A stretch of DNA of 64,000 nt from Candidatus Eiseniibacteriota bacterium (GTDB lineage Bacteria > Joyebacterota > Joyebacteria > Joyebacterales > Joyebacteraceae), in assembly GCA_043819135.1 (NCBI GenBank), contig JBDRFG010000106.1:809-64808 (forward strand), written 5' to 3'. Each line of letters opens with the position of its first letter. The stretch's first letter is position 1. Below are positions 5,776 to 45,655 of this stretch, piece after piece. A program made the translations under genes and the position numbers. A model generated the notes under the pieces. That model saw nothing but the letters and a program-made list of their open reading frames with translations, had not been told where the DNA came from and made no database searches.

Positions 5776-6372
5776 ATGAACTGGCCGAACGGGCTGAGCG
5801 TAGCGCGGCTGATTATGGGACCAATCGTCCTTGTCTGCCTACTGACAGGTTTCGTGAGGCTTGCCTTCTACATCTTCGTGGTTGCTATGCTCACGGACCT
5901 CTGCGACGGTTACCTCGCACGGCGCTCGAACAGAGTGACGGAATTCGGGAAGCTGATGGATCCATTGGCCGACAAGGTCCTTGTCTCCCTGGTCCTTATC
6001 GGTCTCTTGTTCATGGGGTTGCCGTTCGTCTCGCTGTGGATGGTCGCTGTGATCATCGCGCGTGAACTCCTGATCCTTGGCTGTCGAACCGGCGTGTTCA
6101 AGAGCGGTGAGGGATTCGTGACCAGCAGGGCCGCCAAGTGGAAGACGGCCGCCCAGATGGTCTGGATCTCAGGGACGCTTCTCTACCTGACGGTCATCTC
6201 GCGGGTGGGCTTGAGCCCCGGCGATCCCCAGTGCCAGGCTATTGAGCGGGGGCTCTGGGGGGTCGGAGTGGTGGCCGTCGCCCTGACCATCATTTCCGGG
6301 GCGGACTACCTGGTTTGGAGCAGAGACTCCGGAGGCAATGTGCCGCAGGTCCACCGGAACGAGGAGGTCTAG
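5776..6372 (+). CDS. pgsA: CDP-diacylglycerol--glycerol-3-phosphate 3-phosphatidyltransferase
   Basis: The CDP-alcohol phosphatidyltransferase motif DxxDGxxAR...G...DxxxD is present as DLCDGYLARR...GKLMDPLADK. The protein is polytopic. Confidence 0.8.
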   Translation: MNWPNGLSVARLIMGPIVLVCLLTGFVRLAFYIFVVAMLTDLCDGYLARRSNRVTEFGKLMDPLADKVLVSLVLIGLLFMGLPFVSLWMVAVIIARELLILGCRTGVFKSGEGFVTSRAAKWKTAAQMVWISGTLLYLTVISRVGLSPGDPQCQAIERGLWGVGVVAVALTIISGADYLVWSRDSGGNVPQVHRNEEV

Positions 6373-6377
6373 CCGAC

Positions 6378-6872
6378 ATGGAAGAGCGCGCTCCGAGACT
6401 GAACCCGCTGGTCAGGTTTCTGGCCACCGGGGCCTACCTGGGATACGCCCCTTTCGCTCCCGGCACGGTGGGATCCCTCGGTTGCGCGGTGCTCGTCTGG
6501 TTTGCTGTTCCCGAGGTGACTCACTTGAGCTCGGCGCCGGCGATCGGCGTGGCGGCTCTCTCCACGCTGGCGTTCGTCGCGCTGGCCATCTGGGCGTCCG
6601 GTCTTGCCGAGAGAAGTTTCGGACACGATGCGTCACGAATCGTTATCGACGAGTATGCGGGCTTCCTCATCTCCGTTCTCCTGCTTCCCAAGTCACTCTT
6701 CGTGTTCGCCGTGGCGTTCCTGCTGTTCAGGGCCCTCGACATCGTGAAGCCGTTCCCCGCGAGGCGGGCGGAGGCACTTCCGGGAGGCACCGGAGTTGTG
6801 CTGGACGACGTCGTCGCGGGCATCTACGCGAACATACTCCTGCGGGTCATGCTGCTGGTTCAGGGTTGGTGA
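6378..6872 (+). CDS. pgpA: phosphatidylglycerophosphatase A
   Basis: GAYLGYAPFAPGTVGSLG...VIDEYAGF...ALDIVKPFP is typical PgpA. The ATG at 6378 follows the pgsA stop at 6372. The track ORF starting at 6315 overlaps pgsA and is rejected. Confidence 0.75.
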   Translation: MEERAPRLNPLVRFLATGAYLGYAPFAPGTVGSLGCAVLVWFAVPEVTHLSSAPAIGVAALSTLAFVALAIWASGLAERSFGHDASRIVIDEYAGFLISVLLLPKSLFVFAVAFLLFRALDIVKPFPARRAEALPGGTGVVLDDVVAGIYANILLRVMLLVQGW

Positions 6873-9922: not shown

Positions 9923-10564
9923 GTGAGCGGCACGATCACCGAGATCAGAAGGACCGGCGAAGACACGCTCCGTCTGACGGTGTTCGTTGACGGAGTGGAG
10001 GCCTTCACGGTCTCCGAGGAGGTAGCTCGCGAACTCGGCCTGTCGGTGGGCGACGAACTGGCTCAGCCTGCAGCCGTTTGTACTGCGGCCGACGACGATC
10101 GCGCGAAGGCGAGGGAAGCCGCGCTCAGGCTCCTGGCCGTGCGTGCCAGAAGCGAGGGTGAACTCTCCGACCGCCTGAGACGCAAGGGCTTCAGCGAGCA
10201 GCTGACGGCCGCGGTGGTGTTCTCACTGGCCGAGGTCGGACTGGTCGACGACGAGGCGTTCGCGCGCGCGTGGACCGACGAGCGAGTGAGACTTCGCCCC
10301 GTCGGGCCGCGGCGACTTGCTCAGGAACTTCTGTCGAAGAAGGTCAACAGAGACCTGGCCGCCCGCGTGGTGGACGAGACCTTCCGGGAGCACTCGGAGC
10401 TGGAGCTGGCCCGCAAGGCGGTTGAGAAGAAAGCGCGAGTGTCAGGGGGCGTGGACGGTGGCAAGCGCCGCGCCCGTCTGCACTCGTTTCTGATAAGAAG
10501 GGGCTTCTCTTTTGAGGTGGTGTCCGCCGTCATCAAGGAGATAGAGGGAGAATCAGATGCCTGA
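9923..10564 (+). CDS. recX: regulatory protein RecX
   Basis: It lies immediately downstream of recA and has the repeated RecX helical modules (ELSDRLRRKGFSEQL..., LAQELLSKKVNRDL...). Confidence 0.75.
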   Translation: MSGTITEIRRTGEDTLRLTVFVDGVEAFTVSEEVARELGLSVGDELAQPAAVCTAADDDRAKAREAALRLLAVRARSEGELSDRLRRKGFSEQLTAAVVFSLAEVGLVDDEAFARAWTDERVRLRPVGPRRLAQELLSKKVNRDLAARVVDETFREHSELELARKAVEKKARVSGGVDGGKRRARLHSFLIRRGFSFEVVSAVIKEIEGESDA

Positions 10565-13244
10565 CGGCATGTCGTCCAACGAGATCAGGCGCCGGTTCAT
10601 CGAGTACTTCATCGAGCGCGGACACGAGAAGGTAGAGAGCGCTCCGCTGATACCGCGCGACGACCCGACGCTTCTCTTCACGTCGGCGGGCATGGTGCCG
10701 TTCAAGCCGTACTACATGAACGATAACCCTCCGATCACACGCGCGGTTTCCGTTCAGAGATGCCTGCGCCTCTCCGACCTTGACGAGGTGGGGAAGACTC
10801 CCTATCACGCGACCTTCTTCGAGATGCTCGGCAACTTCTCCTTCGGCGATTACTTCAAAGAAGAGACGATCGAGTGGGGATGGGAGTTCCTGACGGAGGT
10901 CATCGGGTTGCCGAAGGACCGCCTGTGGGTCACCGTCCACAAGGACGACGCTGCGGCGGCCGACATCTGGCGGACGCGGATCAAGTTTCCCTCCGAGCGC
11001 CTTGTGGCGTTGGGTGACAAGCACAACTTCTGGGGGCCGGCGGGCGACTCGGGCCCCTGCGGGCCGTGCTCTGAGATCCATCTGGACATGGGCGCCGAGG
11101 CCGGTTGCGGAAACCCCGGCTGCGACCCCGGCTGCGAGTGCGACCGCTTCTTCGAGATATGGAACCTGGTCTTCCCGCAGTTCCTGCAGCGTGCGGATGG
11201 CACGCGCGAGCCGCTCAAGCGCCCCGGCATCGATACGGGCATGGGGTTCGAGCGTCTTGCCAGCGTCGTGCAGGGAGCCGCGAGCATTCACGAGACCGAC
11301 ACGGGCCTGCCCGTCCTGGCGGCAGTGAGGGACGACGCCGAGGCGGCAAGCGGAACGCGGCCACCCGAGGGGCGGCCCGGCCCGGATCTGGTCGTCATAG
11401 CCGATCACGCCCGGGCGGCGACGTTCGCGATCGCCGAGAACATCCTGCCGTCGAACGAGGCGCAGGGCTACATCGTGCGCCGCCTGATCCGCAGGGCGGT
11501 GCACCGCGGTCTCTCGCTCGGCATCGTCGAACCGTTCCTCTACCGCATCAGCGGAGTGATCGTTGACGCGCTCGGAGAGGCGCATCCGCATCTCGTCCAG
11601 AAGCGCGAGCATGTCGCGCTCGTGGTCAAGTCGGAGGAGGAGCGTTTTCACGAGACCCTGACGCGGGGGAGCGCCGTGTTCGAGGAGATGCTCGAGTCCC
11701 TCGCCGGGAGCGACTCGAAGGTCGTTCCCGGGGACGTCGCCTTCAGCCTCTATGACACATACGGATTCCCGCTCGATATCGCTGAAGAGATGGCCGCCGA
11801 GCGCGGCATGATCGTGGACCGCGAGGCCTTCCAGGCAGCAATGGCGGAGCAGAAGGACCGCGGCAGGCGGGCCTCGACGTTCGGCGACCCCGGCGATGCA
11901 GGCACGTGGGAAGGGAAGCGCGCCGCCACCGCGTTCGTAGGCTACGAACTCCCGTGTGCGTGCGGGGAGGGAGCGGAGTGCGAAACGGTCGATACGCTGC
12001 TGTCCGGCCCCGTAGCCACCGAGGTGGCGGAAGTCAGGCGCGCGCGTGAGAACACGCTCGAGTTCACGCTGACCGAGAGTCCTTTCTACGCGGAGTCTGG
12101 CGGACAGGTGGCCGACTCCGGCACGCTGACCGTGGGCGGCGCCACCGTGGAGGTGGTGAACGTGCTGACGCGCGACGAGCGCTACGTGCACGTCGGGACC
12201 GATCCCGGCGGGGCGATCACTCCCGGAGCGCCCGCGGAGGCGCGCGTCGACGTCGCGAGAAGACGCCTCATCGAGAAGAACCACACGGCCACTCATCTGC
12301 TCCAGGCCGCTCTGAGGAACGCGCTGGGTGACCACGTCCACCAGTCCGGGTCGTGGGTGGGTCCGGACAGGTTGCGATTCGACTTCACACACTTCTCCGA
12401 GCTGTCGGCCAGGGAGATCGCGGCTATCGAGGACAGGGTGAACGCCTGGGTCCGCGCCGACGTCCCTGTCGCGCCCGAGAGCATGGGGCTCGAAGCGGCG
12501 CTCGAGCGCGGTGCGACGGCGCTCTTCGGCGAGAAGTACGGCTCCGAGGTCCGGGTCGTCTGTGTCGGTTGCGGCGAGTCGAAGGTGAGCCTGGAACTCT
12601 GCGGCGGCACTCATGTCGAGAGAACGGGCGAGATCGGATCCTTCGCGGTGGTCAGCGAATCGGGCGTGGCCGCCGGCGTCAGGAGGATCGAGGCCGTGAC
12701 GGGCAGAACGGCGGTGGCGCGAGCCCGCCACAACGCGGAGCTTGTCAGAGAGCTCACCGATGTCCTCAAGGTCGCCCCGGGCGAAGCGCTCGACAGGGCG
12801 AGGGAACTCACCGCCGAAACATCGAAGCTCCGAAAGGAAGTCGAGCGGGAGCGGCAGAAGATCGCGGGCGGGTCAGTGGACTCGCTGCTCGACGGTGCAC
12901 GCGAGGTAGCGGGTATCCGACTTCTGGCCGCGCGAACCGACGCGCCGGACATCAAGACCCTCCGCGGCCAGGCCGACCGACTGCGCGACAGGCTGGGTAG
13001 CGGGGCGGGACTTCTGGCGGCCGTTACGGAGGGCGGTGTCATTGTCATAGCGGTCGTCACGGAAGATCTGGTCAAGAAGGGTACCCTCAGCGCGGGAGAC
13101 CTCGTCCACGAGGTGGCGGGAGTTCTGGGGGGACGCGGTGGAGGCAAACCGCAACTTGCCCAGGGCGGCGGCGGAGACCCGGCCAGGCTTGAGCAGGCGC
13201 TCGAGGAATTCTATGAGGTGGCCCGCCGTGCCATCGAGAGCTGA
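10557..13244 (+). CDS. alaS: alanine--tRNA ligase
   Basis: MSSNEIRRRFIEYFIERGHEKVESAPLIP...FTSAGMVPFKPYY is the class II aaRS catalytic domain. It is followed by the editing domain (HTATHLLQ...C.GTH) and a C-terminal DHHA1 domain. Confidence 0.95.
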   Translation: MPDGMSSNEIRRRFIEYFIERGHEKVESAPLIPRDDPTLLFTSAGMVPFKPYYMNDNPPITRAVSVQRCLRLSDLDEVGKTPYHATFFEMLGNFSFGDYFKEETIEWGWEFLTEVIGLPKDRLWVTVHKDDAAAADIWRTRIKFPSERLVALGDKHNFWGPAGDSGPCGPCSEIHLDMGAEAGCGNPGCDPGCECDRFFEIWNLVFPQFLQRADGTREPLKRPGIDTGMGFERLASVVQGAASIHETDTGLPVLAAVRDDAEAASGTRPPEGRPGPDLVVIADHARAATFAIAENILPSNEAQGYIVRRLIRRAVHRGLSLGIVEPFLYRISGVIVDALGEAHPHLVQKREHVALVVKSEEERFHETLTRGSAVFEEMLESLAGSDSKVVPGDVAFSLYDTYGFPLDIAEEMAAERGMIVDREAFQAAMAEQKDRGRRASTFGDPGDAGTWEGKRAATAFVGYELPCACGEGAECETVDTLLSGPVATEVAEVRRARENTLEFTLTESPFYAESGGQVADSGTLTVGGATVEVVNVLTRDERYVHVGTDPGGAITPGAPAEARVDVARRRLIEKNHTATHLLQAALRNALGDHVHQSGSWVGPDRLRFDFTHFSELSAREIAAIEDRVNAWVRADVPVAPESMGLEAALERGATALFGEKYGSEVRVVCVGCGESKVSLELCGGTHVERTGEIGSFAVVSESGVAAGVRRIEAVTGRTAVARARHNAELVRELTDVLKVAPGEALDRARELTAETSKLRKEVERERQKIAGGSVDSLLDGAREVAGIRLLAARTDAPDIKTLRGQADRLRDRLGSGAGLLAAVTEGGVIVIAVVTEDLVKKGTLSAGDLVHEVAGVLGGRGGGKPQLAQGGGGDPARLEQALEEFYEVARRAIES

Positions 13245-13288
13245 GGGTTCGTTGCCCGGATGCTGACGCGCGTGACCGAGGGGAGCGC

Positions 13289-14053
13289 ATGAGGGAGACT
13301 GGAAGAACGCTCGCCTGGCTGGAGGGTGAGATACGCGCCCGGGGCGCCCTGTACCTGGTGCTCCTGGACCCCGACAGGTTCGATCCCTCCGAGAACGCGA
13401 AGCTCGCGGCGCTCGCGGTGGGGGCCGGAGCCGACGCGCTCCTGGTCGGAGGCAGCCTGTCCCTGAAGGGAGGCTGCGACAGAACAGTGCGCGCGATCAA
13501 GGGGGCGGTCGACGTTCCTGTCATCCTCTTCCCGGGCGACATCGGCTTCGTTACCGAAGAGGCCGATGCGATACTGTTCCTGTCGCTGGTGAGCGGGCGC
13601 AACCCGCAGTTCCTCATAGGGGAGCACGTGCGCGCCGCACCCGTTCTGAAAGAGGCGGGGCTCGAGCCGATACCGACGGCCTACATGCTGGTCGAGGGCG
13701 GAGCCACGACATCCGTCGAGTTCATGAGCTCGACGAAGCCCATCCCTCGGGACAAGCCCGACATAGCCATGGCGCACGCGCTTGCGGCTCAGTATCTGGG
13801 CATGAGGCTGGCCTTCTTCGACGCGGGTAGCGGCGCAGCACAGCACGTTCCCGAGGAAATGGTCCGCATGGTCTCCCGCTACGTCGACCTGCCGGTCATG
13901 GTCGGGGGGGGGATCCGCGAGCCTGCCGCGGCTGGTCGGCTGGTGGAAGCCGGCGCCAGCGTCATCATCACCGGTGACGTAGTTGAGAAGACGGGAGACG
14001 CGGGTCTCATGAAGGCGCTCGCCGAGGCCGTGCACGAGCCGCGCAGTTCGTGA
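13289..14053 (+). CDS. pcrB: geranylgeranylglyceryl/heptaprenylglyceryl phosphate synthase (PcrB/GGGPS family TIM barrel)
   Basis: The protein is about 250 aa. LVLLDPDRF...ADALLVGGS...FFDAGSG...MVGGGIRE align along the whole length with B. subtilis PcrB (FKLDPNK...IIGGS...YLEYSG...YGGGI). Confidence 0.8.
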   Translation: MRETGRTLAWLEGEIRARGALYLVLLDPDRFDPSENAKLAALAVGAGADALLVGGSLSLKGGCDRTVRAIKGAVDVPVILFPGDIGFVTEEADAILFLSLVSGRNPQFLIGEHVRAAPVLKEAGLEPIPTAYMLVEGGATTSVEFMSSTKPIPRDKPDIAMAHALAAQYLGMRLAFFDAGSGAAQHVPEEMVRMVSRYVDLPVMVGGGIREPAAAGRLVEAGASVIITGDVVEKTGDAGLMKALAEAVHEPRSS

Positions 14054-14166
14054 GCGCCCAGGCGCGCGACGCGGCGCCCCGGAGTCGCTGAGGAGGCCGC
14101 CCGGTTCTGCGGCGGAGATCGTGCGGGGGCGTCGAGCTTCCGCTTCACGGAACACTCGAAAGGCAG

Positions 14167-15240
14167 GTGGTCCGCATCAAGGCTCTCGTCCTTTCAGGCG
14201 GCAAGGGTACGCGGCTCAGACCGATCACGCACACGAGCGCGAAGCAACTGGTCCCCATCGCGAACAAACCCATCCTGTTCTACGGACTGGAGGCGATCCG
14301 TAACGCGGGGATCGTCGACGTCGGGATCGTCGTGGGCGAGACGGCGAAGGAGATAGAGGCCGCCGTCGGCGACGGCTCCTCCTTCGGCCTCAAGGTCACA
14401 TACATTCTTCAGAATGAGCCCCTCGGTCTGGCCCACGCGGTCAAGATATCGAGCGACTACATCGGCAAGGAACCGTTCGTGATGTACCTCGGCGACAATC
14501 TTATCATGGGCGGCATCACCGATTTCGTCTCCGAGTTCCAGAGGCACAAGCCCAACGCACAGATCCTCCTGGCCCGCGTAGACAACCCGAGCGAGTTCGG
14601 CGTGGCCGAGTTGTCGGGCGGGAGGGTGGAACGGCTCCAGGAGAAACCCGAGAACCCACGCTCGAATCTCGCTCTTGTAGGCGTCTACATGTTCGACGCG
14701 GAGATCTTCGGAGCGGTGAACGACATCAAGCCGTCGGCGCGGAACGAACTCGAGATCACTGACGCCATCCAGAGGCTGATAGACACGGGCAGGGAGGTCC
14801 GGGCGCACGAGGTCACGGGCTGGTGGAAGGACACGGGGAAGCTGGAGGACATACTCGAGGCCAACCGGATGATACTCGAGACCATCAAGCGGGACATCGC
14901 GGGCAGCGTGGACAGCGGCTCGCGCATAGACGGGAACGTGGTGGTCGCGGAAGGGGCTGAGATCCACGGCAGCGTCCTTCGCGGTCCGCTGGTCATAGGA
15001 CGAGGCTGCAGGATCGTCAAGTCGTACATCGGACCGTTCACCTCCATCTATCACGACGTGACGGTCCAGAATTCCGAGATCGAGCACAGCATCATCCTCG
15101 AGAACTCGAGCATCTCCAATCTCGGCAGCAGGATGGAGAGGAGCCTTATCGGCAAGGACGTGGAGATCACGAAGAGCGGCACGATGCCGAAGGCCTTCCG
15201 CTTCATGGTGGGAGACGCCAGCAGGATCGAGGTGCCCTAG
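14167..15240 (+). CDS. rmlA: glucose-1-phosphate thymidylyltransferase, long form with C-terminal left-handed beta-helix
   Basis: LVLSGGKGTRLRPITHTSAKQLVPIANKPILFYGLE is the nucleotidyltransferase signature. The protein is about 357 aa, with an LbH C-terminal extension as in the actinobacterial/archaeal long RmlA. Confidence 0.8.
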   Translation: MVRIKALVLSGGKGTRLRPITHTSAKQLVPIANKPILFYGLEAIRNAGIVDVGIVVGETAKEIEAAVGDGSSFGLKVTYILQNEPLGLAHAVKISSDYIGKEPFVMYLGDNLIMGGITDFVSEFQRHKPNAQILLARVDNPSEFGVAELSGGRVERLQEKPENPRSNLALVGVYMFDAEIFGAVNDIKPSARNELEITDAIQRLIDTGREVRAHEVTGWWKDTGKLEDILEANRMILETIKRDIAGSVDSGSRIDGNVVVAEGAEIHGSVLRGPLVIGRGCRIVKSYIGPFTSIYHDVTVQNSEIEHSIILENSSISNLGSRMERSLIGKDVEITKSGTMPKAFRFMVGDASRIEVP

Positions 15241-16115
15241 TGGGAAGCGACACCCCGGGAACCGGACGCGGGACGGAGAGGGTCCTGGTCACGGGCTCAG
15301 CCGGCATGCTGGGGACGGAACTGGTTCCGCTGCTCAGGGGCGAGTTCGAGGTTACCGCGGCGGACCTAGACGACTTCGACCTGCGGGACGGTGCGGCGAC
15401 CGACGCGTTCGTGTCGCGGGTGGCGCCAGATCTCATCATCAACTGCGCCGCCTATACTGATGTCGACGGCGCCGAAGCCGATCCCGCCGCCGCGTTCGAC
15501 GTCAACGCCGGCGGTGCGGGGAACGTCGCGGCGGCCGGTGAGCGGGCCGGAGCGCGAGTCGTCCAGATCAGCACCGACTACGTCTTCGACGGCACGGGCA
15601 GGAGGCCCTACAGGGAAGAGGACGAACCGAGCCCGCTGGGAGCGTACGGACGCTCGAAGCACGAGGGCGAGCGCCGGGTCATCGAGTGCTCTTCCGACCC
15701 TCTGATAGTCCGTACGGCGTGGCTCTACGGACACGCGGGGCCGAACTTCGTCGAGAAGGTGCTGTCTCTGGCGACCTCCGGACGGGCGCTGAGGGTGGTC
15801 AACGACCAGGTCGGGGCTCCGACCAACGTCCGCGACCTCGCCTGGGCGATCCGGGAACTGATTGCGGCGGAGGCCACCGGTGTGGTAAACGCTACGAATG
15901 CGGGTTCGTGCTCGTGGTTCGACTTCGCTCGCGAGATACTGGACCGCGCCGGACACACCGGCGTCCCGATAGAGCCCGTGACCAGCGACGAGTTCCCGAG
16001 GCCCGCGCCTCGGCCGGGCTATTCGGTCCTGTCTCTCGCGAAGCTCGTGTCGCTCACTGGCAGGGAACCGAGGAACTGGCGGGACGCTCTGGCCGAGTAC
16101 ATCGCCGAAAGGTAG
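15240..16115 (+). CDS. rmlD: dTDP-4-dehydrorhamnose reductase
   Basis: The Rossmann motif VLVTGSAGMLG, the motif NCAAYTDVDGAE and the catalytic YGRSK are present. The GTG start overlaps the rmlA TAG stop by 1 nt. Confidence 0.8.
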   Translation: MGSDTPGTGRGTERVLVTGSAGMLGTELVPLLRGEFEVTAADLDDFDLRDGAATDAFVSRVAPDLIINCAAYTDVDGAEADPAAAFDVNAGGAGNVAAAGERAGARVVQISTDYVFDGTGRRPYREEDEPSPLGAYGRSKHEGERRVIECSSDPLIVRTAWLYGHAGPNFVEKVLSLATSGRALRVVNDQVGAPTNVRDLAWAIRELIAAEATGVVNATNAGSCSWFDFAREILDRAGHTGVPIEPVTSDEFPRPAPRPGYSVLSLAKLVSLTGREPRNWRDALAEYIAER

Positions 16116-16120
16116 GCTCA

Positions 16121-16714
16121 ATGGAACGACATGCTGAGACGGGCGTCGACCGCGCGAGGGCGGTCTTCACGGAGTCCTCGAGGATGCACGCGCTCGCGGC
16201 CGAGTCTCTGTCCGAGGCGGTTGCCGAGGCGGCCGCTGCGGTCACCGAAGCTCTCAGGGCCGGCAACAAGGTGCTTCTCTGCGGCAACGGGGGGAGCGCC
16301 GCAGACGCGCAGCATGTTGCGGCCGAGCTGGCGGGTAGACTGCGCCTGGAGCGTGGCGGCCTGCCTGCGATCGCGCTCACGGTGAACACCTCGGTCATGA
16401 CCGCTCTGGCGAACGACTACGGATACGACATGGTATTCGCAAGACAGGTGGAGGCACTGGGGTGCAGGGGAGACGTGCTGGTCGGCATCTCGACGAGCGG
16501 CAGGTCCCCCAATGTCGTAAGAGCTCTCGAGGCGGCGCGTGCCGGCGGTGTTGTCACGGTGGGGCTCGTCGGGTGCGACGCGGGGGAGATGGGGGGGCTG
16601 TGCGACTACCTGATCGCAGTCCCCACCGAGGACACACAGCGCATTCAGGAGATACACATCGCGGCCGGGCACGCGATATGCGAGATCGTGGAGTCCGCGC
16701 TGTTCGGTCAGTAG
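16121..16714 (+). CDS. gmhA: phosphoheptose (sedoheptulose-7-phosphate) isomerase, SIS domain
   Basis: LLCGNGGSAADAQHVAAELAGR...GDVLVGISTSGRSPNV matches GmhA. The ATG at 16121 lies 5 nt after the rmlD stop. The longer track ORF starting at 15686 overlaps rmlD and is rejected. Confidence 0.8.
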   Translation: MERHAETGVDRARAVFTESSRMHALAAESLSEAVAEAAAAVTEALRAGNKVLLCGNGGSAADAQHVAAELAGRLRLERGGLPAIALTVNTSVMTALANDYGYDMVFARQVEALGCRGDVLVGISTSGRSPNVVRALEAARAGGVVTVGLVGCDAGEMGGLCDYLIAVPTEDTQRIQEIHIAAGHAICEIVESALFGQ

Positions 16715-16736: not shown

Positions 16737-17357
16737 GTGGATCCCATAATCATCGGCATCGGAGGGGGAACCGGGTCGGGGAAAACGACCGTCGCCAAGC
16801 AGGTGCGGAAGCATTTCCCGGAGGAGAGCGTCGTCATCGTCCATCACGACTCCTACTACGTGGACCGCAGCGACCTTTCGCCCGCGAGCCGCGAGAACAT
16901 CAACTACGACCATCCGGATTCGTTCGACAATGAGCTCCTTCTGGCGCAGCTGAACGACCTGAGAGGCGGCAAGGCCGTCGATAAGCCGATATACGACTTC
17001 GAGACGCACACCAGACGGAAGGAGACCATCACCGTCCGTCCGGCTCGGATAATACTGCTCGAGGGCATTCTGGTGCTGGCCGAGGACGTACTCAGGGAGA
17101 CCATGGACATCAAGCTCTACGTCGACACGGATGCCGACGAGCGCTTCATTCGCCGATTGAGGCGCGACATCTCGGACCGAGGCAGAACAGTCGACCAGGT
17201 CATCGAACAGTACCTAAAGACCGTCCGGCCGATGCACCTGCAGTTCGTTGAGACCAGCAAACGGTACGCGGACGTGATAATCCCCGAGGGTGGGCTGAAC
17301 GTCGTGGCGGTCGACCTGATCGTTACAAAAATACGCGACATTCTCTCAGCTCACTAG
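16737..17357 (+). CDS. udk: uridine kinase
   Basis: The P-loop is IGIGGGTGSGKTT. The udk-type HHDSYY and DFETHTR motifs are present. Confidence 0.85.
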   Translation: MDPIIIGIGGGTGSGKTTVAKQVRKHFPEESVVIVHHDSYYVDRSDLSPASRENINYDHPDSFDNELLLAQLNDLRGGKAVDKPIYDFETHTRRKETITVRPARIILLEGILVLAEDVLRETMDIKLYVDTDADERFIRRLRRDISDRGRTVDQVIEQYLKTVRPMHLQFVETSKRYADVIIPEGGLNVVAVDLIVTKIRDILSAH

Positions 17358-17400: not shown

Positions 17401-18291
17401 ATGATGGTGCGACACCTCTTCAGGATCCTCCGGCCGGACCAGTGGACGAAGAACCTCGTGCTCTTTGCGGGGCTTATGTTCGCGGGTGGTATGGGGACGC
17501 GGACGCTCGTCCTTCACGCGACCGCGGGCTTCCTTGCGTTCTGCGCCCTGTCCGGCGCCACCTACATATTCAACGACCTGATGGACGTACGTCGGGACCG
17601 TGAGCACCCAGTCAAGAAGCTGCGACCGCTGGCGTCGGGCGACCTGCCGATCGGAGTCGCTTCGGTCGCCGCGGTCGTTCTGGCGGTGCTCGCGCTCGTG
17701 TGGGCCTACGGTCTCCATCCGAACTTCGGGCTGGTTGCCACCGGCTACCTGGCTCTCAACGTCCTCTACAGCGTCGCCCTCAGGAAGATGGTCGTTCTGG
17801 ACGTCATGGCGATCGCGATCGGCTTCGTGCTCAGAGCGGTCGGCAGCGTGGAGGTCCTCAAGGGGCCTGCGCCCGACACCGAGCTTTCGCCCTGGCTTCT
17901 GGTCTGCACGTTCTTCCTTGCACTCTTTCTGGGGCTGGGGAAGAGGAGGCACGAGGTGCTGGTGCTCGGCGCCGACGGCGGGAAGCACCGTCCCGTGCTG
18001 AAGCACTACCCGCCGCCACTCATAGACGCCCTCTTCGGCGTCGTGACAGCGTCGACGGTCGTCTCGTACGCCATCTACACCATCTGGCCGGGAACCGTCG
18101 AGAAGGTGGGAGGCACGGGGCTCGTCTACACGATACCTTTCGTGGTGTACGGCGTTTTTCGATACCTCTACCTGATGTTCGCGGCGGGCGAGGGAGGGCA
18201 GCCGTCGCGCTCTCTCCTGTCTGACCTTCCACTCGCGCTGAACATCGTCCTGTGGGTCCTCGTGGTGGCGTTCGTCATCTACGCGAGGTGA
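17401..18291 (+). CDS. UbiA-family polyprenyl-phosphate transferase (DPPR-synthase-like or DGGGP-synthase-like)
   Basis: The protein has 8-9 TM helices and the first Asp-rich motif NDLMDVRRDREHPVKKLRPLASG. That motif is very close to the M. tuberculosis Rv3806c family (NDxxDxxADREHPxKRxRPxAxG). Confidence 0.65.
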   Translation: MMVRHLFRILRPDQWTKNLVLFAGLMFAGGMGTRTLVLHATAGFLAFCALSGATYIFNDLMDVRRDREHPVKKLRPLASGDLPIGVASVAAVVLAVLALVWAYGLHPNFGLVATGYLALNVLYSVALRKMVVLDVMAIAIGFVLRAVGSVEVLKGPAPDTELSPWLLVCTFFLALFLGLGKRRHEVLVLGADGGKHRPVLKHYPPPLIDALFGVVTASTVVSYAIYTIWPGTVEKVGGTGLVYTIPFVVYGVFRYLYLMFAAGEGGQPSRSLLSDLPLALNIVLWVLVVAFVIYAR

Positions 18292-18391
18292 GAACTGGGA
18301 ATCCGCGCCCGAGCGCCGCGTTCGCGCTCCGTCGGCGGGTCTCGCGTGGAAGCTGCCGTTCCGTCGACGGCAGCGTTTTCTTGGGAGGGCA

Positions 18392-19291
18392 GTGCAACTG
18401 CACCGCGTCAGCGTAGAAGCGTTCGCCAAGATCAACCTCGGATTGGCCGTGACGGGCGTGAGACCGGACGGCTATCACGACATCGAGACGGTGTACCAGA
18501 GCGTGTCTCTCTGCGACACGGTTGTTCTCGGTCCTCTGGAAGGTCCTCATCGAGTGTCTCTGACCGTCCACGGATCGTCTCTCCCCGACGGCCCGGACAA
18601 TCTGGCGTGGAGGGCCGCCGAAGCCGCCCGCGCCACCTTCGGGTGCGGGGGGGTCTCGATCGAGCTGACGAAGCGGATCCCGGTCGCAGCAGGTTTGGGT
18701 GGCGGGAGCGCCGACGCTGCAGCTGTCCTGGTGGGCATGGACGCCCTGTTCGACCTCAGAGCACCGGCGGACGCCCTGTTGGACCTGGCGGCCTCCATCG
18801 GCTCCGACGTGCCCTTCATGCTGTCCGGGGGCACGGCGCTGGGGACCGGAAGGGGAGAGAAGCTCGAGCGGCTGCCCGCCCTCGTCGGCGTCTGGTTTGT
18901 CCTCGCCGCCCCGCGCTTCGGGGTTTCGGCGGGCGAGGCCTACGGAATCCCGAGAATCGGGTTGACAGAGGCCGCTAGCTTCACTAGAGTAAACTGTTTA
19001 GCTGTCCGGGAAGGCGACATTCCGACGCTTGCCAAGGGGCTTCGGAACGACCTGGAAGCTGGTGTTGCGTCTGCCTATCCGGAGGTTGCGCGCGTCAAGG
19101 AGGCGCTGCTGGAACAGGGCGCCCTCGCCGCCGTGATGTCCGGAAGCGGACCGACGGTCGTCGGACTCGTTCCTGACGAAGCGACCGGGAAGGACATGGC
19201 GTCGCGCCTGGCGAGGTGTGACGTGGACATACATGTCGTAGCGCCGATCGACGTAGGCCAGAGCGTGACTCGGGTAGACGACGAGCCCTGA
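18392..19291 (+). CDS. ispE: 4-(cytidine 5'-diphospho)-2-C-methyl-D-erythritol kinase
   Basis: The GHMP kinase motifs KINLGLAV and [15 protein letters not shown] are present. The start codon is GTG. Confidence 0.85.
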
Positions 19292-19695: not shown

Positions 19696-19769
19696 TGGGG
19701 CGTCGTCAAGTGGCAAGACACGGGACTTTGGATCCCGCCTCGGAGGTTCGAATCCTCCCGCCCCAGCCA
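19696..19769 (+). tRNA. tRNA-Gln (anticodon TTG), CCA encoded
   Basis: Hand-folded cloverleaf. Acceptor stem TGGGGCG/CGCCCCA, discriminator G and an encoded CCA. D-stem GTC/GAC. Anticodon stem CGGGA/TCCCG with loop CTTTGGA. T-arm GGAGG-TTCGAAT-CCTCC. The ends resemble E. coli tRNA-Gln (TGGGG...CCCCAGCCA). Confidence 0.85.
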
Positions 19770-31049: not shown

Positions 31050-32462
31050 ATGACCGACAAGAGAAGACTGAGCGCGATACCGTCCGTCGATGCAGTGCTG
31101 GCTCATCTCGAGGAGAGAAGCCTCAGCACAGTACAGCCTACGCCCATACTGACCCGTCTCGTCAGGGAGATACTCGAACGCGAGCGCGCGGCAATGCTCG
31201 CCGGCGAGGGGCACCACGGGGACACCCCCGAGGACACACGCGCCGGTATCCTCAGGAAGGTGGAGGCGGAGGTCCTGCGCTCGCCTGCCCGCGGTCTCGT
31301 GCCTGTCATCAACGCCACCGGCGTGGTCGTTCACACCAATTTGGGAAGAGCGCCGCTCTCTGAAGAGGCCGTGGCGGCGGTTGCGGAGATTGCGCGAGGG
31401 TACTCGAATCTGGAGTACGACCTGATCAGGGGCACTCGCGGGAAGAGGGACTACCTTGTCAGGGACGCGCTGTGCGAGCTGACCGGCGCCGAGGACGCTC
31501 TCGTGGTGAACAACAACGCGGCGGCCGTCCTCCTGGTTCTGAACACTCTCGCCGCCGGTCGCGAGGTCGTCGTATCGCGAAGCGAACTGATAGAGATCGG
31601 CGGCTCGTTCAGGCTTCCGGACGTGTTCGAGCGCAGCGGCTCGCGCATGGTCGAGGTCGGAACGACGAACCGCACACACCTGTCGGATTTCCGGGACGCC
31701 ATCAGGAGCAGCACAGGGGCGCTCATGTCAGCGCACTGGAGCAACTACTCGATCTCGGGATTCGTCGAGCGCGTTTCGTTGAGCAAACTCGCCTCACTGG
31801 GAGAGCGCTTCGGCATTCCCGTTATCCATGACCTTGGAAGCGGCATCCTCATCGATCCCGCGAAGCTCGGGCTTTCCGGAGAGATGACGGTGGCTGAGAG
31901 CGTCTCCGCCGGAGCGACCGTCTCGACCTTCAGCGGCGACAAGATCCTCGGAGGCCCGCAGGCCGGCATCGCGGTGGGCACGGAGAGCGCCATCTCGCGC
32001 ATGAGGGCGAATCCCCTGATGCGAGCGCTTCGCCCGGGCAAGCTGACTCTGGCCGCCCTGTCGGCGACGCTCGCAAGCTACCTTCGCGGCGACGCAGAGA
32101 CGTCGGTCCCCGTGTTGTCAACGATCCTGGCGCCTCTCGATTCGCTTGCCGGAAGGGCCGAGCGAATGGCCAAGTCGCTGTCGTTGGCGCTGGGCGAGGG
32201 GGCGCGGGTATCGGCGCGTGAACTGGAAGGGCGCGTGGGCGGAGGCGCCGCTCCGGAGATAGTCATACCCAGCAGCGGGATCGAGATAGAGCCGCGCGGG
32301 AGCGTCACCGCGGGATCGGTTACGGCCGCGATGCTCGCGGCGTCACCGGCCGTCGTCGCGCGCACACAGGACGACCGCATAATCGTTGACTTGAGAACCG
32401 TCCCTGAAGACCAGGACAGCGCGGTCGTCGAGGCCCTGATCCACGCGTTCGGGGAGAGGTAA
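31050..32462 (+). CDS. selA: L-seryl-tRNA(Sec) selenium transferase
   Basis: INATGVVVHTNLGRAPL, the PLP region GGSFRLP and FSGDKILGGPQAGI with the PLP lysine are present. The protein is about 470 aa. Confidence 0.85.
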   Translation: MTDKRRLSAIPSVDAVLAHLEERSLSTVQPTPILTRLVREILERERAAMLAGEGHHGDTPEDTRAGILRKVEAEVLRSPARGLVPVINATGVVVHTNLGRAPLSEEAVAAVAEIARGYSNLEYDLIRGTRGKRDYLVRDALCELTGAEDALVVNNNAAAVLLVLNTLAAGREVVVSRSELIEIGGSFRLPDVFERSGSRMVEVGTTNRTHLSDFRDAIRSSTGALMSAHWSNYSISGFVERVSLSKLASLGERFGIPVIHDLGSGILIDPAKLGLSGEMTVAESVSAGATVSTFSGDKILGGPQAGIAVGTESAISRMRANPLMRALRPGKLTLAALSATLASYLRGDAETSVPVLSTILAPLDSLAGRAERMAKSLSLALGEGARVSARELEGRVGGGAAPEIVIPSSGIEIEPRGSVTAGSVTAAMLAASPAVVARTQDDRIIVDLRTVPEDQDSAVVEALIHAFGER

Positions 32463-38569: not shown

Positions 38570-38592
38570 CCTAGGTGACAGCTGAATACATG

Positions 38593-38706
38593 TTCCTTCG
38601 GGGCGGGGTGCAAATCCCCACCGGCGGTTACAGCCCGCGAGCGGAGCGATCCGCAGAGCCTGTGAAATCCAGGCGCCGACAGTGAGAGTCTGGATGGTAG
38701 AAGGAA
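38593..38706 (+). promoter_or_regulatory. FMN riboswitch (RFN element) aptamer
   Basis: The RFN consensus blocks are present: TTCGGGGCGGGGTGCAAATCCCCACCGGCGGTTA, AGCCCGCGAGC and GCCGACAGTGAGAGTCTGGATGGTAGAAGGAA. A P1 helix forms between ttccttc and gaaggaa. It sits upstream of ribD. Confidence 0.85.
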
Positions 38707-38743
38707 CCGGCACGGGAGGTGAGTCTCTTCCTGTGCCCCTTGA

Positions 38744-43644: not shown

Positions 43645-44577
43645 GTGCTGACTGCAAGCGTCGGCGTGATGGCATACAACGAAGAGCAGAACATCGACAA
43701 GCTGCTGGCCGCGCTCACCAGCCAGTCGCTCGAGCGCGTGGATATGCGTCAGATAGTCGTCGTGTCCAGCGGCTCGACCGATCGTACGGACGACATCGTT
43801 CGCGAATGGGCCGACAAAGACCAGCGCATCTCGCTCATCAGGCAGGAATCGCGCGAGGGCAAGGCGTCCGCCATCAACCTGTTCCTCGACGCGGCCGACG
43901 CCGACGTCTTCGTACTCGAGAGCGGCGACACCATCCCCGCGCCCGACTGCGTGGAGCACATGCTGGCGCCCTTCGAGAACCCGAATGTGGGGATGACCGG
44001 CGGCCGGCCGACACCCGTCGACGACCCGAACACCTTCATGGGATTCGTGGTGCACATGCTCTGGCGTCTTCACCATATGCTGGCGCTCAAGTCGCCGAAG
44101 CTCGGAGAGATGGTCGCGTTTCGGTCCTTCGTCCGTTCGATCCCGCCTGATACGGCCGTCGACGAAGCCAGCATAGAGGCCATCGTGATCGAACGCGGCA
44201 GTTCCCTGGCCTACGTACCTGAAGCGATCATCTACAACAAGGGCGCGTCGACGGTGGGCGATTTTCTCAAGCAGAGACGGCGCATATACGCCGGTCATAT
44301 CTGGCTGTCGAAGGTCCAGTCCTACGAGGTCTCGACGAAGAGGGTCGGAGGCATCGTCTCCGTCCTCCTGGAAGACCTCACGCCTTCGCCGCGCGCGCTG
44401 CTCTGGACCGCGGGCGGCGTCTTCCTCGAGTTCGTGGGGCGTCTTCTGGGCGCGATCGACTACTACGTGATGAAGAAGAACCCCTATACCTGGGAAGTGT
44501 CCCGAAGCACAAAGAGCCTCGATGCGCCCGCGACTCACGACACAGGAGCCAGGGGGGCGGGGGCGGTCGATGGTTGA
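43645..44577 (+). CDS. family 2 glycosyltransferase
   Basis: The N-terminal GT-A motif is VGVMAYNEEQNI..., with a DxD-like ESGD and R/K..YAG. This is the first gene of the glycan locus. Confidence 0.65.
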   Translation: MLTASVGVMAYNEEQNIDKLLAALTSQSLERVDMRQIVVVSSGSTDRTDDIVREWADKDQRISLIRQESREGKASAINLFLDAADADVFVLESGDTIPAPDCVEHMLAPFENPNVGMTGGRPTPVDDPNTFMGFVVHMLWRLHHMLALKSPKLGEMVAFRSFVRSIPPDTAVDEASIEAIVIERGSSLAYVPEAIIYNKGASTVGDFLKQRRRIYAGHIWLSKVQSYEVSTKRVGGIVSVLLEDLTPSPRALLWTAGGVFLEFVGRLLGAIDYYVMKKNPYTWEVSRSTKSLDAPATHDTGARGAGAVDG

Positions 44578-45655
44578 GATTCTCGCGAAGATCCCACTCT
44601 ACAAGTTGGCTCACGCGACCGGGTGGCCAAGGATCCTCCCGCTCAACCTCACGGTCAGCGTGACCTACCGCTGCAACTCCAGGTGCCTCACGTGCAACGT
44701 CTACACCAAGGACGCTCGTGAATTCACGGCCGAGGAGTTCGACCGAACGTTTCGCTCGCTCGGCCGCGCGCCTTACTGGTACACGATGAGCGGCGGGGAG
44801 CCGTTCCTTCGGTCCGACCTTCCCGACATCTGCGAGAGCGCGTACCGGAACGGACGCCCCGGGATCATCAACATTCCGACAAACGGGCTTCTCTCATCCC
44901 GGATCCCAGCGATGGTAGAGGACCTTGCCGGACGCTGCCCGAAGACGCAGGTCATCATCAACCTGTCGCTGGACGGCGTCGGAGAGGAGCACGACCGGAT
45001 CCGTGGCAGAGACGGGAGCTTCGAGAAGGCCGTCGAGACCTACCGGGGATTGAGGGCGCTCAAGTCACCGAACCTCACGGTGGGCGTTCACACGGTCATC
45101 TCGGTGCACAACGTCGAGCGAATACGATCGATCTACGAATACGTCGTCCGCGAACTCGCGCCGGACTCGTTCATCACGGAGATAGCCGAGGAGCGCGTGG
45201 AGCTCGAGACTCTCGGGGCGTCTATCACACCGACGGCAACCGCTTACGCCGTGGCCGTCGACTTTCTGATCGCCAGGATCAAGGAGCAGGACTACTCAGG
45301 CATCTCGCGCGTCACCCAGTCGTTCAGGGTGCGCTACTATGAGCTCGTGAAGCGATACCTCGCGTCGGGCGCGCAGCCGATCCCGTGCTATGCGGGAGTG
45401 GCGTCGGCCCAGATCGCGCCGGACGGACACGTGTGGTTCTGCTGCATCAAGGCCGAGTCGATGGGAAATCTGCGCGACGTCGACTTCGACTTCAGCCGCA
45501 TCTGGTACGGCGAGAAGGCGATGGAGGAACGGAAGAGGATCCGGGCGGGCGAGTGCGCGTGTCCGCTGGCGAACGCCGGCTACACGAACATGCTGATGCA
45601 CGTGCCGACCGTCACCGGCGTGGCCTTCGAGGTCGCATCGGGAGGGCGGCGGTAG
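44570..45655 (+). CDS. radical SAM protein with Cys-rich SPASM-like C-terminal region
   Basis: The CxxxCxxC triad CNSRCLTC is present with YTMSGGEPFL (the glycine-rich SAM motif). C-terminal cysteines are CYAGV...WFCC...GECACP. The start at 44570 overlaps the upstream GT2 gene by 8 nt. Confidence 0.7.
   Translation: MVEILAKIPLYKLAHATGWPRILPLNLTVSVTYRCNSRCLTCNVYTKDAREFTAEEFDRTFRSLGRAPYWYTMSGGEPFLRSDLPDICESAYRNGRPGIINIPTNGLLSSRIPAMVEDLAGRCPKTQVIINLSLDGVGEEHDRIRGRDGSFEKAVETYRGLRALKSPNLTVGVHTVISVHNVERIRSIYEYVVRELAPDSFITEIAEERVELETLGASITPTATAYAVAVDFLIARIKEQDYSGISRVTQSFRVRYYELVKRYLASGAQPIPCYAGVASAQIAPDGHVWFCCIKAESMGNLRDVDFDFSRIWYGEKAMEERKRIRAGECACPLANAGYTNMLMHVPTVTGVAFEVASGGRR

Follow-up and report, generated by a model that had tools for sequence, protein, structure and literature searches.

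Does an archaeal-type ether-lipid enzyme take part in the lipid chemistry of a bacterium that carries its gene among housekeeping genes, and what would it make there? The question is raised by a gene for geranylgeranylglyceryl phosphate synthase (GGGPS) in a 64-kb stretch of DNA from the metagenome-assembled genome of an uncultured Candidatus Eiseniibacteriota bacterium (contig JBDRFG010000106.1; the whole stretch is called the window and the lineage Eisenbacteria below), and such bacterial genes are relevant to the 'lipid divide' that separates archaea from bacteria. We computed the family, fold, residue conservation, selection and synteny of this gene, and from these we infer substrates, stereochemistry, oligomeric state, co-transcription and product fate. 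The best explanation, to which we give a probability of roughly 85%, is that the gene encodes a functional group II GGGPS, whose reaction would be the first on the way to a minor pool of isoprenoid ether lipids.

The protein matches the Pfam family PF01884 (PcrB) from profile position 8 to 223 of 226 (E = 6.6e-45; 153.8 bits, with the cutoff at 23.9). Its scores are above the cutoffs of two NCBIfam models as well, NF003198 (291 against 247 bits) and the GGGP equivalog TIGR01769 (211 against 161.6 bits). A preliminary description, made from the letters of the window alone, had called this open reading frame (ORF) a full-length PcrB/GGGPS prenyltransferase forming an ether bond, in a bacterial housekeeping context, and the Pfam, NCBIfam and fold results bear out this call. 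For the division into groups I and II, we used the classification of Peterhoff et al. (2014). The group-I-specific models TIGR04146 and TIGR04147 score the protein far under cutoff, and the PcrB equivalog NF003197 gives no match at E < 1e-5. In a sequence search of the PDB, the protein scores 206 bits to the GGGPS of Methanothermobacter thermautotrophicus (Mt; 4MM1), 173 and 161 bits to two Thermoplasma enzymes and 160 bits to the GGGPS of Flavobacterium johnsoniae (Fj), compared with 33–34 bits to the group I GGGPS of Archaeoglobus fulgidus (Af) and 26 bits to Bacillus subtilis PcrB. Global identities are 44% (mtGGGPS) and 38% (fjGGGPS). The AlphaFold model, built with 47 homologues (pLDDT 91.7, pTM 0.91), shows eight strands and an N-terminal helix (residues 6–18), that is, a modified (βα)8 barrel with helix α0. 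In Foldseek, this model overlays with the group II structures 4MM1, 5NEZ and 5NDY at template-modelling (TM) scores of 0.93–0.95 and a root-mean-square deviation of 1.4–2.2 Å; PcrB, MoeO5 and A. fulgidus GGGPS are more distant, in a second tier around TM 0.8 with 17–21% identity, within which the PcrB structures stand at about 0.85 and 19% identity. Because both the bit scores and the fold match the group II structures over A. fulgidus GGGPS and PcrB, the window protein belongs to group II of the GGGPS enzymes; it is not a Bacillus-type PcrB. A grouping with non-prenyltransferase TIM barrels would have spoken against the original call; sequence and Foldseek both place the protein with the GGGPS structures.

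To locate the residues of the active site, we aligned 60 sequences with MAFFT (the window protein, 57 genomic relatives, mtGGGPS and fjGGGPS), and the residue roles were taken from PMC9385802 and PMC7888582. The former paper numbers Y134, Y178 and E180 as residues of MtGGGPS; these numbers fit the Flavobacterium chain (4JEJ). Residue frequencies in the wider family were counted in 143 representatives of 50%-identity clusters, drawn from an exhaustive HMMER search that gave 280 clusters at E <= 1e-30. The Mg/diphosphate residues Asp27 (Mt D25; Af D13) and Ser56 (Mt S54) are invariant across the alignment, and Asp29 aligns with Mt E27 of the same site. Standard phosphate-binding loops follow β6 (G180-S181-G182), β7 (G206-G207-G208) and β8 (T228-G229-D230), and the first two of these triplets as well as G229 are invariant. 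The first tyrosine in contact with sn-glycerol-1-phosphate (G1P) is kept as Tyr132 (Af Y124; Fj Y134), and this position holds Tyr in 58 of the 60 aligned sequences and in 142 of the 143 representatives. At the position that limits chain length, helix α3′ carries a small aliphatic residue, Val88 (Mt V86; Fj I90), which by homology implies a C20 donor. Regarding the oligomeric state, Phe145 aligns with Mt W141 at the aromatic anchor position. An aromatic anchor (Trp, Tyr or Phe) is a marker of GGGPS hexamers, and most group II enzymes are hexamers (PMC7888582); Phe145 at this position predicts a hexamer.

A distinct difference is found in the canonical Y-x-E motif for glycerol phosphate, whose residues are credited with G1P stereospecificity and catalysis and are called strictly conserved (PMC9385802). 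In the window protein, this motif reads F176-F177-D178 (DNA 13814-13822). Phe176 takes the place of the second G1P tyrosine (Af Y165; Fj Y178; Mt Y172), so that the family pattern is not kept at this residue. Asp178 takes the place of the catalytic glutamate that polarizes the C3 hydroxyl group of G1P (Af E167; Fj E180; Mt E174), and it keeps the carboxylate on a side chain that is shorter by one methylene. The preliminary description had proposed to look for the conserved G1P-binding residues, and these are kept in part: the phosphate loops and the first tyrosine are present, and the Y-x-E pair is F176-x-D178. Among the 143 representatives, the acid column holds Glu in 101 and Asp in 39 (27%) and never another residue (Asp or Glu in 140 of 140), and the Asp type includes most Bacteroidia. 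The Tyr column holds Tyr in 125 and Phe in eight, and Phe is also found in all Eisenbacteria loci. In all core Eisenbacteria sequences, F-[FM]-D is fixed, and the relatives linked to a geranylgeranyl reductase (GGR) carry F-L-E. Because these GGR-operon relatives have F-L-E, Phe alone looks compatible with function. We read F-F-D as a rare but, judging from these columns, conservative variant, which does not refute the family assignment, though it is the single defining trait of the family from which the protein departs. The F-x-D variant gives a concrete handle on the question of G1P versus sn-glycerol-3-phosphate (G3P); by itself, it is no demonstration of mixed membranes.

The gene is also maintained by selection and in its position. 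Compared with five Eisenbacteria orthologues, its ratio of nonsynonymous to synonymous substitution rates (dN/dS) is 0.08–0.11 in close pairs and 0.21–0.32 in distant pairs, equal to or under that of alaS and similar to those of rmlA and the downstream UbiA gene; the GGGPS gene is under purifying selection at the level of housekeeping genes. For synteny, a scan of one genome per GTDB species gave 57 loci, and further loci were added to make 69 related loci in all. The order pgsA-pgpA-cinA-recA-recX-alaS-GGGPS-rmlA-rmlD(-gmhA-udk-UbiA-ispE-spoVG-prs-L25-pth) is seen in all Eisenbacteria loci of sufficient length, and an orthologue with 72% identity (P0040) lies in a plain alaS-GGGPS-rmlA locus with no GGR. 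The adjacency of alaS and GGGPS extends to Latescibacterota, Edwardsbacteria and several other metagenome-assembled genomes (MAGs), and to three further lineages, some of which have a small intervening gene (FAA hydrolase or RNase T); across phyla, it is found in L013-L015, L018-L020, L022, L023, L028-L030, L058, L062 and L064, and it is absent from Bacteroidia and Poribacteria. Altogether, more than 20 bacterial genomes, belonging to several phyla, have GGGPS in this position. In neighbour-joining trees with bootstrap, calculated without group I outgroup sequences, the Eisenbacteria are monophyletic in 71 of 100 replicates and their core clade in 100 of 100, and they are placed beside Poribacteria and Latescibacterota. 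The archaeal references stand apart from all labelled bacteria in 100 of 100 replicates, with the window protein on the bacterial side, and the nearest other GGGPS clusters bear the names of Ignavibacteriaceae and unclassified bacteria. Because the gene order is common to the Eisenbacteria and the alaS-GGGPS adjacency recurs across phyla, the GGGPS gene has long resided in this housekeeping block, has been inherited vertically and is not a recent archaeal import.

An unexpected result came from four sister loci (L065, L066, L067 and L069) whose gene order follows that of the window for about 20 kb. In these, a ferredoxin (66–82 residues) and a GGR (392–394 residues) are encoded between alaS and GGGPS. 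L069 is collinear from recR/PFOR to pth/ychF and has a DPPR-synthase-like UbiA gene at the same place, and the proteins of the L066 and L067 MAGs are labelled Candidatus Eisenbacteria in NCBI. The GGGPS orthologues of the sister loci are 50–55% identical to the window protein. In another locus (L063), a GGR gene lies directly upstream of GGGPS without alaS; its product passes TIGR02032, and its closest models are those of digeranylgeranylglycerophospholipid reductase. The GGR-linked GGGPS sequences form a clade of their own (200 of 200), whose placement relative to the core Eisenbacteria clade is not fixed by the tree. No remnant of the ferredoxin–GGR pair is present in the gap of about 44 nt between alaS and GGGPS, either in the window or in any core Eisenbacteria locus. 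The window lineage has either lost the pair or keeps it elsewhere; the difference at the locus may reflect a loss or a gain. Because these relatives keep an archaeal-style ferredoxin–GGR–GGGPS module inside a bacterial housekeeping block, the arrangement argues that the module probably does real isoprenoid-lipid chemistry in them. Together with the cross-phylum alaS-GGGPS adjacency, it fits a long-standing selected gene and not a sporadic import. The presence or absence of ferredoxin and GGR and the F-x-D motif are the most notable parts of the finding.

Regarding possible partners in the window, the preliminary description had pointed to a UbiA-family gene 3.3 kb downstream of GGGPS. The gene is there, 3.35 kb downstream, and it is not the lipid partner that was hinted at. 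Its product passes the decaprenyl-phosphate phosphoribosyltransferase equivalog NF008977 and matches the Mycobacterium tuberculosis enzyme in PDB entry 8J8J (scores in Table 1). It has no match to the solved DGGGPS structures even at E <= 10, none to the DGGGPS models NF009512, NF009521 and NF009522 at E < 1e-5, and 48 bits against a cutoff of 269 on NF009523. As a reference, a DGGGPS-like protein from a Bacteroidetes MAG (L044) scores 102–183 bits on the DGGGPS models, and phmmer with this protein as seed gives no match to the UbiA protein or to anything else in the window at E <= 1. By the equivalog, the PDB and model searches and the L044 seed, the UbiA protein is ruled out as a DGGGPS partner. 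Decaprenyl-phosphate phosphoribosyltransferase is an enzyme type of the mycobacterial arabinan pathway. The UbiA gene is flanked by udk and ispE, with prs (PRPP synthetase) two genes away, and this position is conserved in Eisenbacteria.

We compared every plausible ORF of the window, gaps between called genes included, with Pfam or NCBIfam, and no domain of the Fe-ADH type (EgsA/AraM) or the CarS type is present among the ORFs scanned. A lipid gene conserved beside GGGPS in other phyla was not found either, since clustering of the neighbours in the 57 loci gave only housekeeping and sugar genes. The L044 locus is the sole one of the 69 related loci with a DGGGPS-like UbiA gene near GGGPS (L044:647-1552, minus strand; 8.5 kb away); its product scores 153 bits on NF009512 and 183 bits on NF009513, both under cutoff, and the window has no such gene beside GGGPS. 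The ispE gene shows the bacterial route to isoprenoid precursors; it is context and not a proven partner of GGGPS.

The placement of GGGPS between alaS and nucleotide-sugar genes agrees with the preliminary description, with alaS upstream and rmlA and rmlD downstream. The order GGGPS-rmlA-rmlD-SIS is kept across Eisenbacteria, in L026-L030 and in L065-L069, and GGGPS-SIS is found in L058. In a consensus scan, the intergenic stretches from alaS to UbiA are free of terminator-like sites. The first such hairpin between genes downstream of alaS is at 18352-18384 (+), a 9-bp stem followed by GTTTTCTT; it comes shortly after UbiA and is a candidate end of an alaS-to-UbiA transcription unit. The UbiA ORF itself contains two weaker matches (17454-17473). 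A transcript covering alaS-GGGPS-rmlA-rmlD-gmhA-udk-UbiA is thus allowed, and co-transcription is probable.

In the mechanism that we propose, by homology, a soluble (βα)8-barrel prenyltransferase of group II would bind Mg2+–geranylgeranyl diphosphate via Asp27, Asp29 and Ser56, with the C20 chain in a groove that Val88 would close. The glycerol phosphate, most likely G1P, would be held by the GSG (180–182), GGG (206–208) and TGD (228–230) loops together with Tyr132 and the carboxylate of Asp178. An ether bond would then join the two substrates to give geranylgeranylglyceryl phosphate. The enzyme would be hexameric, as predicted from Phe145, and its product would most likely feed a minor pool of isoprenoid glycerol ether lipids beside the ordinary ester phospholipids.

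Several observations weigh against this functional GGGPS at the entry to an ether-lipid pool. Two of the three residues called strictly conserved (Fj Y178 and Fj E180) are replaced, by Phe176 and Asp178, and the F-x-D combination occurs in only two of the 143 family representatives. At its GGGPS locus, the window lineage is without the ferredoxin–GGR pair of its collinear relatives. The pathway genes that the preliminary description had proposed to look for were not found within the 64-kb window, which is what the search covers: it contains no gene for G1P dehydrogenase (G1PDH), DGGGPS, CarS, GGR or a polyprenyl diphosphate synthase. Lastly, a literature search on Eisenbacteria lipids, or on Eisenbacteria together with these genes, found nothing. 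It is possible, though we think it less likely than not, that the enzyme is active and its product is not made into an archaeol-type diether phospholipid. The product would then stay a mono-alkyl glycerol ether, in the manner of Bacillus PcrB, whose products undergo dephosphorylation and acetylation, or it would act as the lipid that anchors or carries a surface glycan, built with the help of rmlA, rmlD, gmhA and the phosphoribosyltransferase gene, all of which share the orientation of the GGGPS gene. The scarcity of DGGGPS-like genes at the 69 loci, where L044 alone has one, would fit this, as would the conserved GGGPS-rmlA-rmlD-SIS order and the run of genes from alaS past UbiA without a terminator-like site, and according to PMC7888582 the role of the bacterial products of GGGPS is unknown. 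However, the sister lineages couple GGGPS with ferredoxin and a GGR resembling digeranylgeranylglycerophospholipid reductase, which points to membrane-lipid chemistry; published surveys place DGGGPS elsewhere in the genome for many FCB-group (Fibrobacteres–Chlorobi–Bacteroidetes) phyla, and a gene order shared by relatives can be inherited without functional coupling. A more elaborate proposal, which we consider improbable, is that of a remodelled module. The absence of ferredoxin and GGR from the locus, the F-F-D motif and the apparent co-transcription with glycan genes would together mark a shift from a saturated archaeol-type membrane lipid to an unsaturated polyprenyl-glycerol ether, which may be G3P-based and may serve as a glycan anchor or specialized envelope lipid.

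The remaining alternatives concern the acceptor, the donor and where the gene came from. The replaced Tyr and Glu are the residues credited with G1P stereospecificity (PMC9385802), and F-[FM]-D is fixed in core Eisenbacteria and rare elsewhere, so the variant might shift the acceptor stereochemistry to G3P, and G1PDH would not be needed. This enzyme is missing from most FCB phyla (PMC6431249), and promiscuity of GGGPS for G3P has been observed (PMC7852524). We nevertheless regard such a shift as unlikely: both changes are conservative, the acid column is Asp or Glu throughout with Asp in more than a quarter of representatives, including most Bacteroidia, and Phe stands with Glu in the GGR-linked sister clade, so that each change alone looks tolerated; moreover, Escherichia coli makes G1P without a known G1PDH (PMC7852524). 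PcrB enzymes of the Bacillus type, which transfer a C35 heptaprenyl chain, belong to the same Pfam family, and the NCBI product name covers both options. Such an enzyme is very improbable here, given the 26 bits and 19% identity to PcrB structures, the missing NF003197 match and a limiter that is Val, as in the C20-specific mtGGGPS. The best match among solved structures is archaeal, which would suit a gene acquired recently from archaea or a piece of archaeal DNA that was binned in error. We give this origin hardly any credence, since the gene shares one contig of uniform GC with bacterial recA, recX, alaS, ribosomal protein and pth genes, occupies the same position in the more than 20 bacterial genomes mentioned above and falls on the bacterial side of the 100/100 split from archaeal references. 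The functional group II GGGPS remains the explanation that we prefer.

How does this enzyme compare with known systems? It shares with M. thermautotrophicus GGGPS (4MM1; group IIa, a hexamer) the fold with helix α0, the Asp and Ser of the Mg/diphosphate site, Val as the limiter, the first G1P tyrosine, the phosphate loops and an aromatic anchor. However, its anchor is Phe instead of Trp, Mt Y172 and E174 are replaced by Phe and Asp, and it has a two-residue insertion before the anchor helix as well as a bacterial host and housekeeping context. The FCB-group enzymes (group IIb; Candidatus Cloacimonetes and F. johnsoniae, 4JEJ) are likewise bacterial group II enzymes in hosts with ordinary ester lipids, with GGGP as the proposed or shown product and with old genes that are apparently vertically inherited. 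Cloacimonetes have an adjacent DGGGPS, whereas none adjoins the window GGGPS, and the F. johnsoniae enzyme is a dimer with Arg at the anchor and the motif Y-L-E, in contrast to the aromatic anchor and F-F-D of the window protein. The sister Eisenbacteria loci (alaS-ferredoxin-GGR-GGGPS-rmlA-rmlD-SIS) share the collinear region of about 20 kb from recR/PFOR to pth/ychF, and they differ from the window lineage in having ferredoxin, GGR and Glu (F-L-E) where it has a 44-nt gap and Asp. B. subtilis PcrB (heptaprenylglyceryl phosphate synthase, group Ib) shares the superfamily and the G1P-ether chemistry; it differs in belonging to group I, in forming a dimer and in using a C35 donor, and its identity to the window protein is only 19%.

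Group II GGGPS is biochemically established in Bacteroidetes (PMC7888582). In the survey of Coleman et al., each of the 12 FCB phyla had homologues of GGGPS and DGGGPS, and just two had G1PDH (PMC6431249). Villanueva et al. (2021) showed both Cloacimonetes enzymes, GGGPS as well as DGGGPS, to be active, and listed a dozen phyla with both genes, a list on which Eisenbacteria, Latescibacteria and Poribacteria do not appear; they also noted that the product stereochemistry could be that of G1P or G3P, and that pgsA-type enzymes have been shown elsewhere to accept CDP-archaeol (PMC7852524). Mixed membranes have been proposed for FCB-group phyla, to which Eisenbacteria are related (PMC7852524, PMC6431249), and the link drawn to such lineages in the preliminary description is sound. 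Its implication of novelty was overstated, since GGGPS is published for many FCB-related phyla and the identical protein is already named 'geranylgeranylglyceryl/heptaprenylglyceryl phosphate synthase [Candidatus Eisenbacteria bacterium]' in NCBI, where it is encoded on a MAG contig of 144,625 bp. The kind of bacterial GGGPS is already known, and the window gene is a new example in Eisenbacteria. With this locus, Eisenbacteria join the FCB-related phyla with a conserved group II GGGPS, and on the same grounds so do Latescibacterota and Poribacteria.

Table 1. The GGGPS gene, its neighbours and the insertion of the sister loci (window coordinates unless a locus is given).
Feature	Position	Strand	Evidence and remarks
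GGGPS gene	13289-14053	+	ATG start, 254 aa; Pfam, NCBIfam, PDB search, AlphaFold, Foldseek, residue mapping, dN/dS
Shine-Dalgarno-like GAGGGGAG	13278-13285	+	Ends 3 nt before GGGPS ATG; read off the sequence
alaS (alanyl-tRNA synthetase)	10557-13244	+	Pfam PF01411, PF07973, PF02272; conserved upstream neighbour
rmlA, long form (glucose-1-phosphate thymidylyltransferase)	14167-15240	+	TIGR01208, 474.7 vs 320 bits; synteny; conserved downstream neighbour
rmlD (dTDP-4-dehydrorhamnose reductase)	15240-16115	+	TIGR01214, 311.9 vs 224 bits
gmhA-like sedoheptulose-7-phosphate isomerase, SIS domain	16121-16714	+	Start placed at ATG 16121; 207 and 214 bits, slightly under equivalog cutoffs
udk (uridine kinase)	16737-17357	+	NF004018, 294.5 vs 180 bits
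UbiA-superfamily decaprenyl-phosphate phosphoribosyltransferase homologue	17401-18291	+	NF008977, 264 vs 234 bits; PDB 8J8J, 117 bits
ispE (MEP-pathway kinase)	18392-19291	+	TIGR00154, 213 vs 139 bits
pgsA (CDP-diacylglycerol--glycerol-3-phosphate phosphatidyltransferase)	5776-6372	+	TIGR00560, 116.9 vs 109.1 bits; member of conserved collinear block
pgpA (phosphatidylglycerophosphatase A)	6315-6872	+	Pfam PF04608; start codon uncertain
Ferredoxin + GGR insertion	L065:8628-9999; L066:9808-11179; L067:225-1635; L069:9814-11185		Window equivalent is the 44-nt gap 13245-13288, from alaS stop to GGGPS start

The window, with a GC content of 64.6%, contains replication and repair genes, PFOR, pgsA, pgpA, ribosomal and translation genes, an H+-pyrophosphatase, a rib operon and a large glycan cluster. 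An antisense ORF at 13211-14155 is longer than the GGGPS ORF and is a typical spurious ORF of high-GC DNA; homology and the dN/dS of 0.08–0.11 favour the frame on the plus strand. The envelope-glycan cluster occupies 43645-63785 and encodes a GT2 protein, a radical SAM/SPASM protein (44522-45655), a DUF362 protein, an LPG_synthase_TM-like protein (about 47.7–48.8 kb) and an epimerase, then GT2, GT1 and GT2 proteins, two phosphodiesterase/sulfatase-like proteins and a GT9 heptosyltransferase (about 54.5–55.4 kb). It also encodes a flippase, a YfhO-like protein, a GT2 protein and a GT2–Bac_transf fusion. The radical SAM protein of this cluster bears a weak resemblance to the tetraether synthase Tes (42.7 bits against a cutoff of 450). 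Elsewhere, an FMN riboswitch (Rfam RF00050, 111.6 bits) is located at 38590-38709 upstream of ribD-ribE-ribBA-ribH-nusB. The sole tRNA gene in the window, tRNA-Gln (anticodon TTG), lies at 19696-19769 between spoVG and prs, and selA (selenocysteine synthase) lies at 31050-32462, with no tRNA-Sec in the window.

Some relatives of the GGGPS protein also deviate from the usual form. An orthologue with 86% identity (P0089, 229 residues, on an ENA contig of 2.2 Mb) seems to be frameshifted after the AGSG loop, which is probably a long-read assembly error and not a sign of a pseudogene. Among the family representatives, P0155 (446 residues) is a fusion with a 4′-phosphopantetheinyl transferase domain N-terminal to the GGGPS domain, and P0175 and P0210 have about 170–200 unannotated residues N-terminal to it. 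Two Methanosarcinaceae MAGs (L056:2916-3659 and L057:7467-8210) carry a group II-type GGGPS gene (NF003198, 337 bits) beside gltA-like oxidoreductase genes. Lastly, in a low-GC relative (L064:14311-20759), a type I-C CRISPR-Cas system (Cas3, Cas5d, Csd1, Cas7, Cas4 and Cas1) lies just downstream of recA-alaS-GGGPS.

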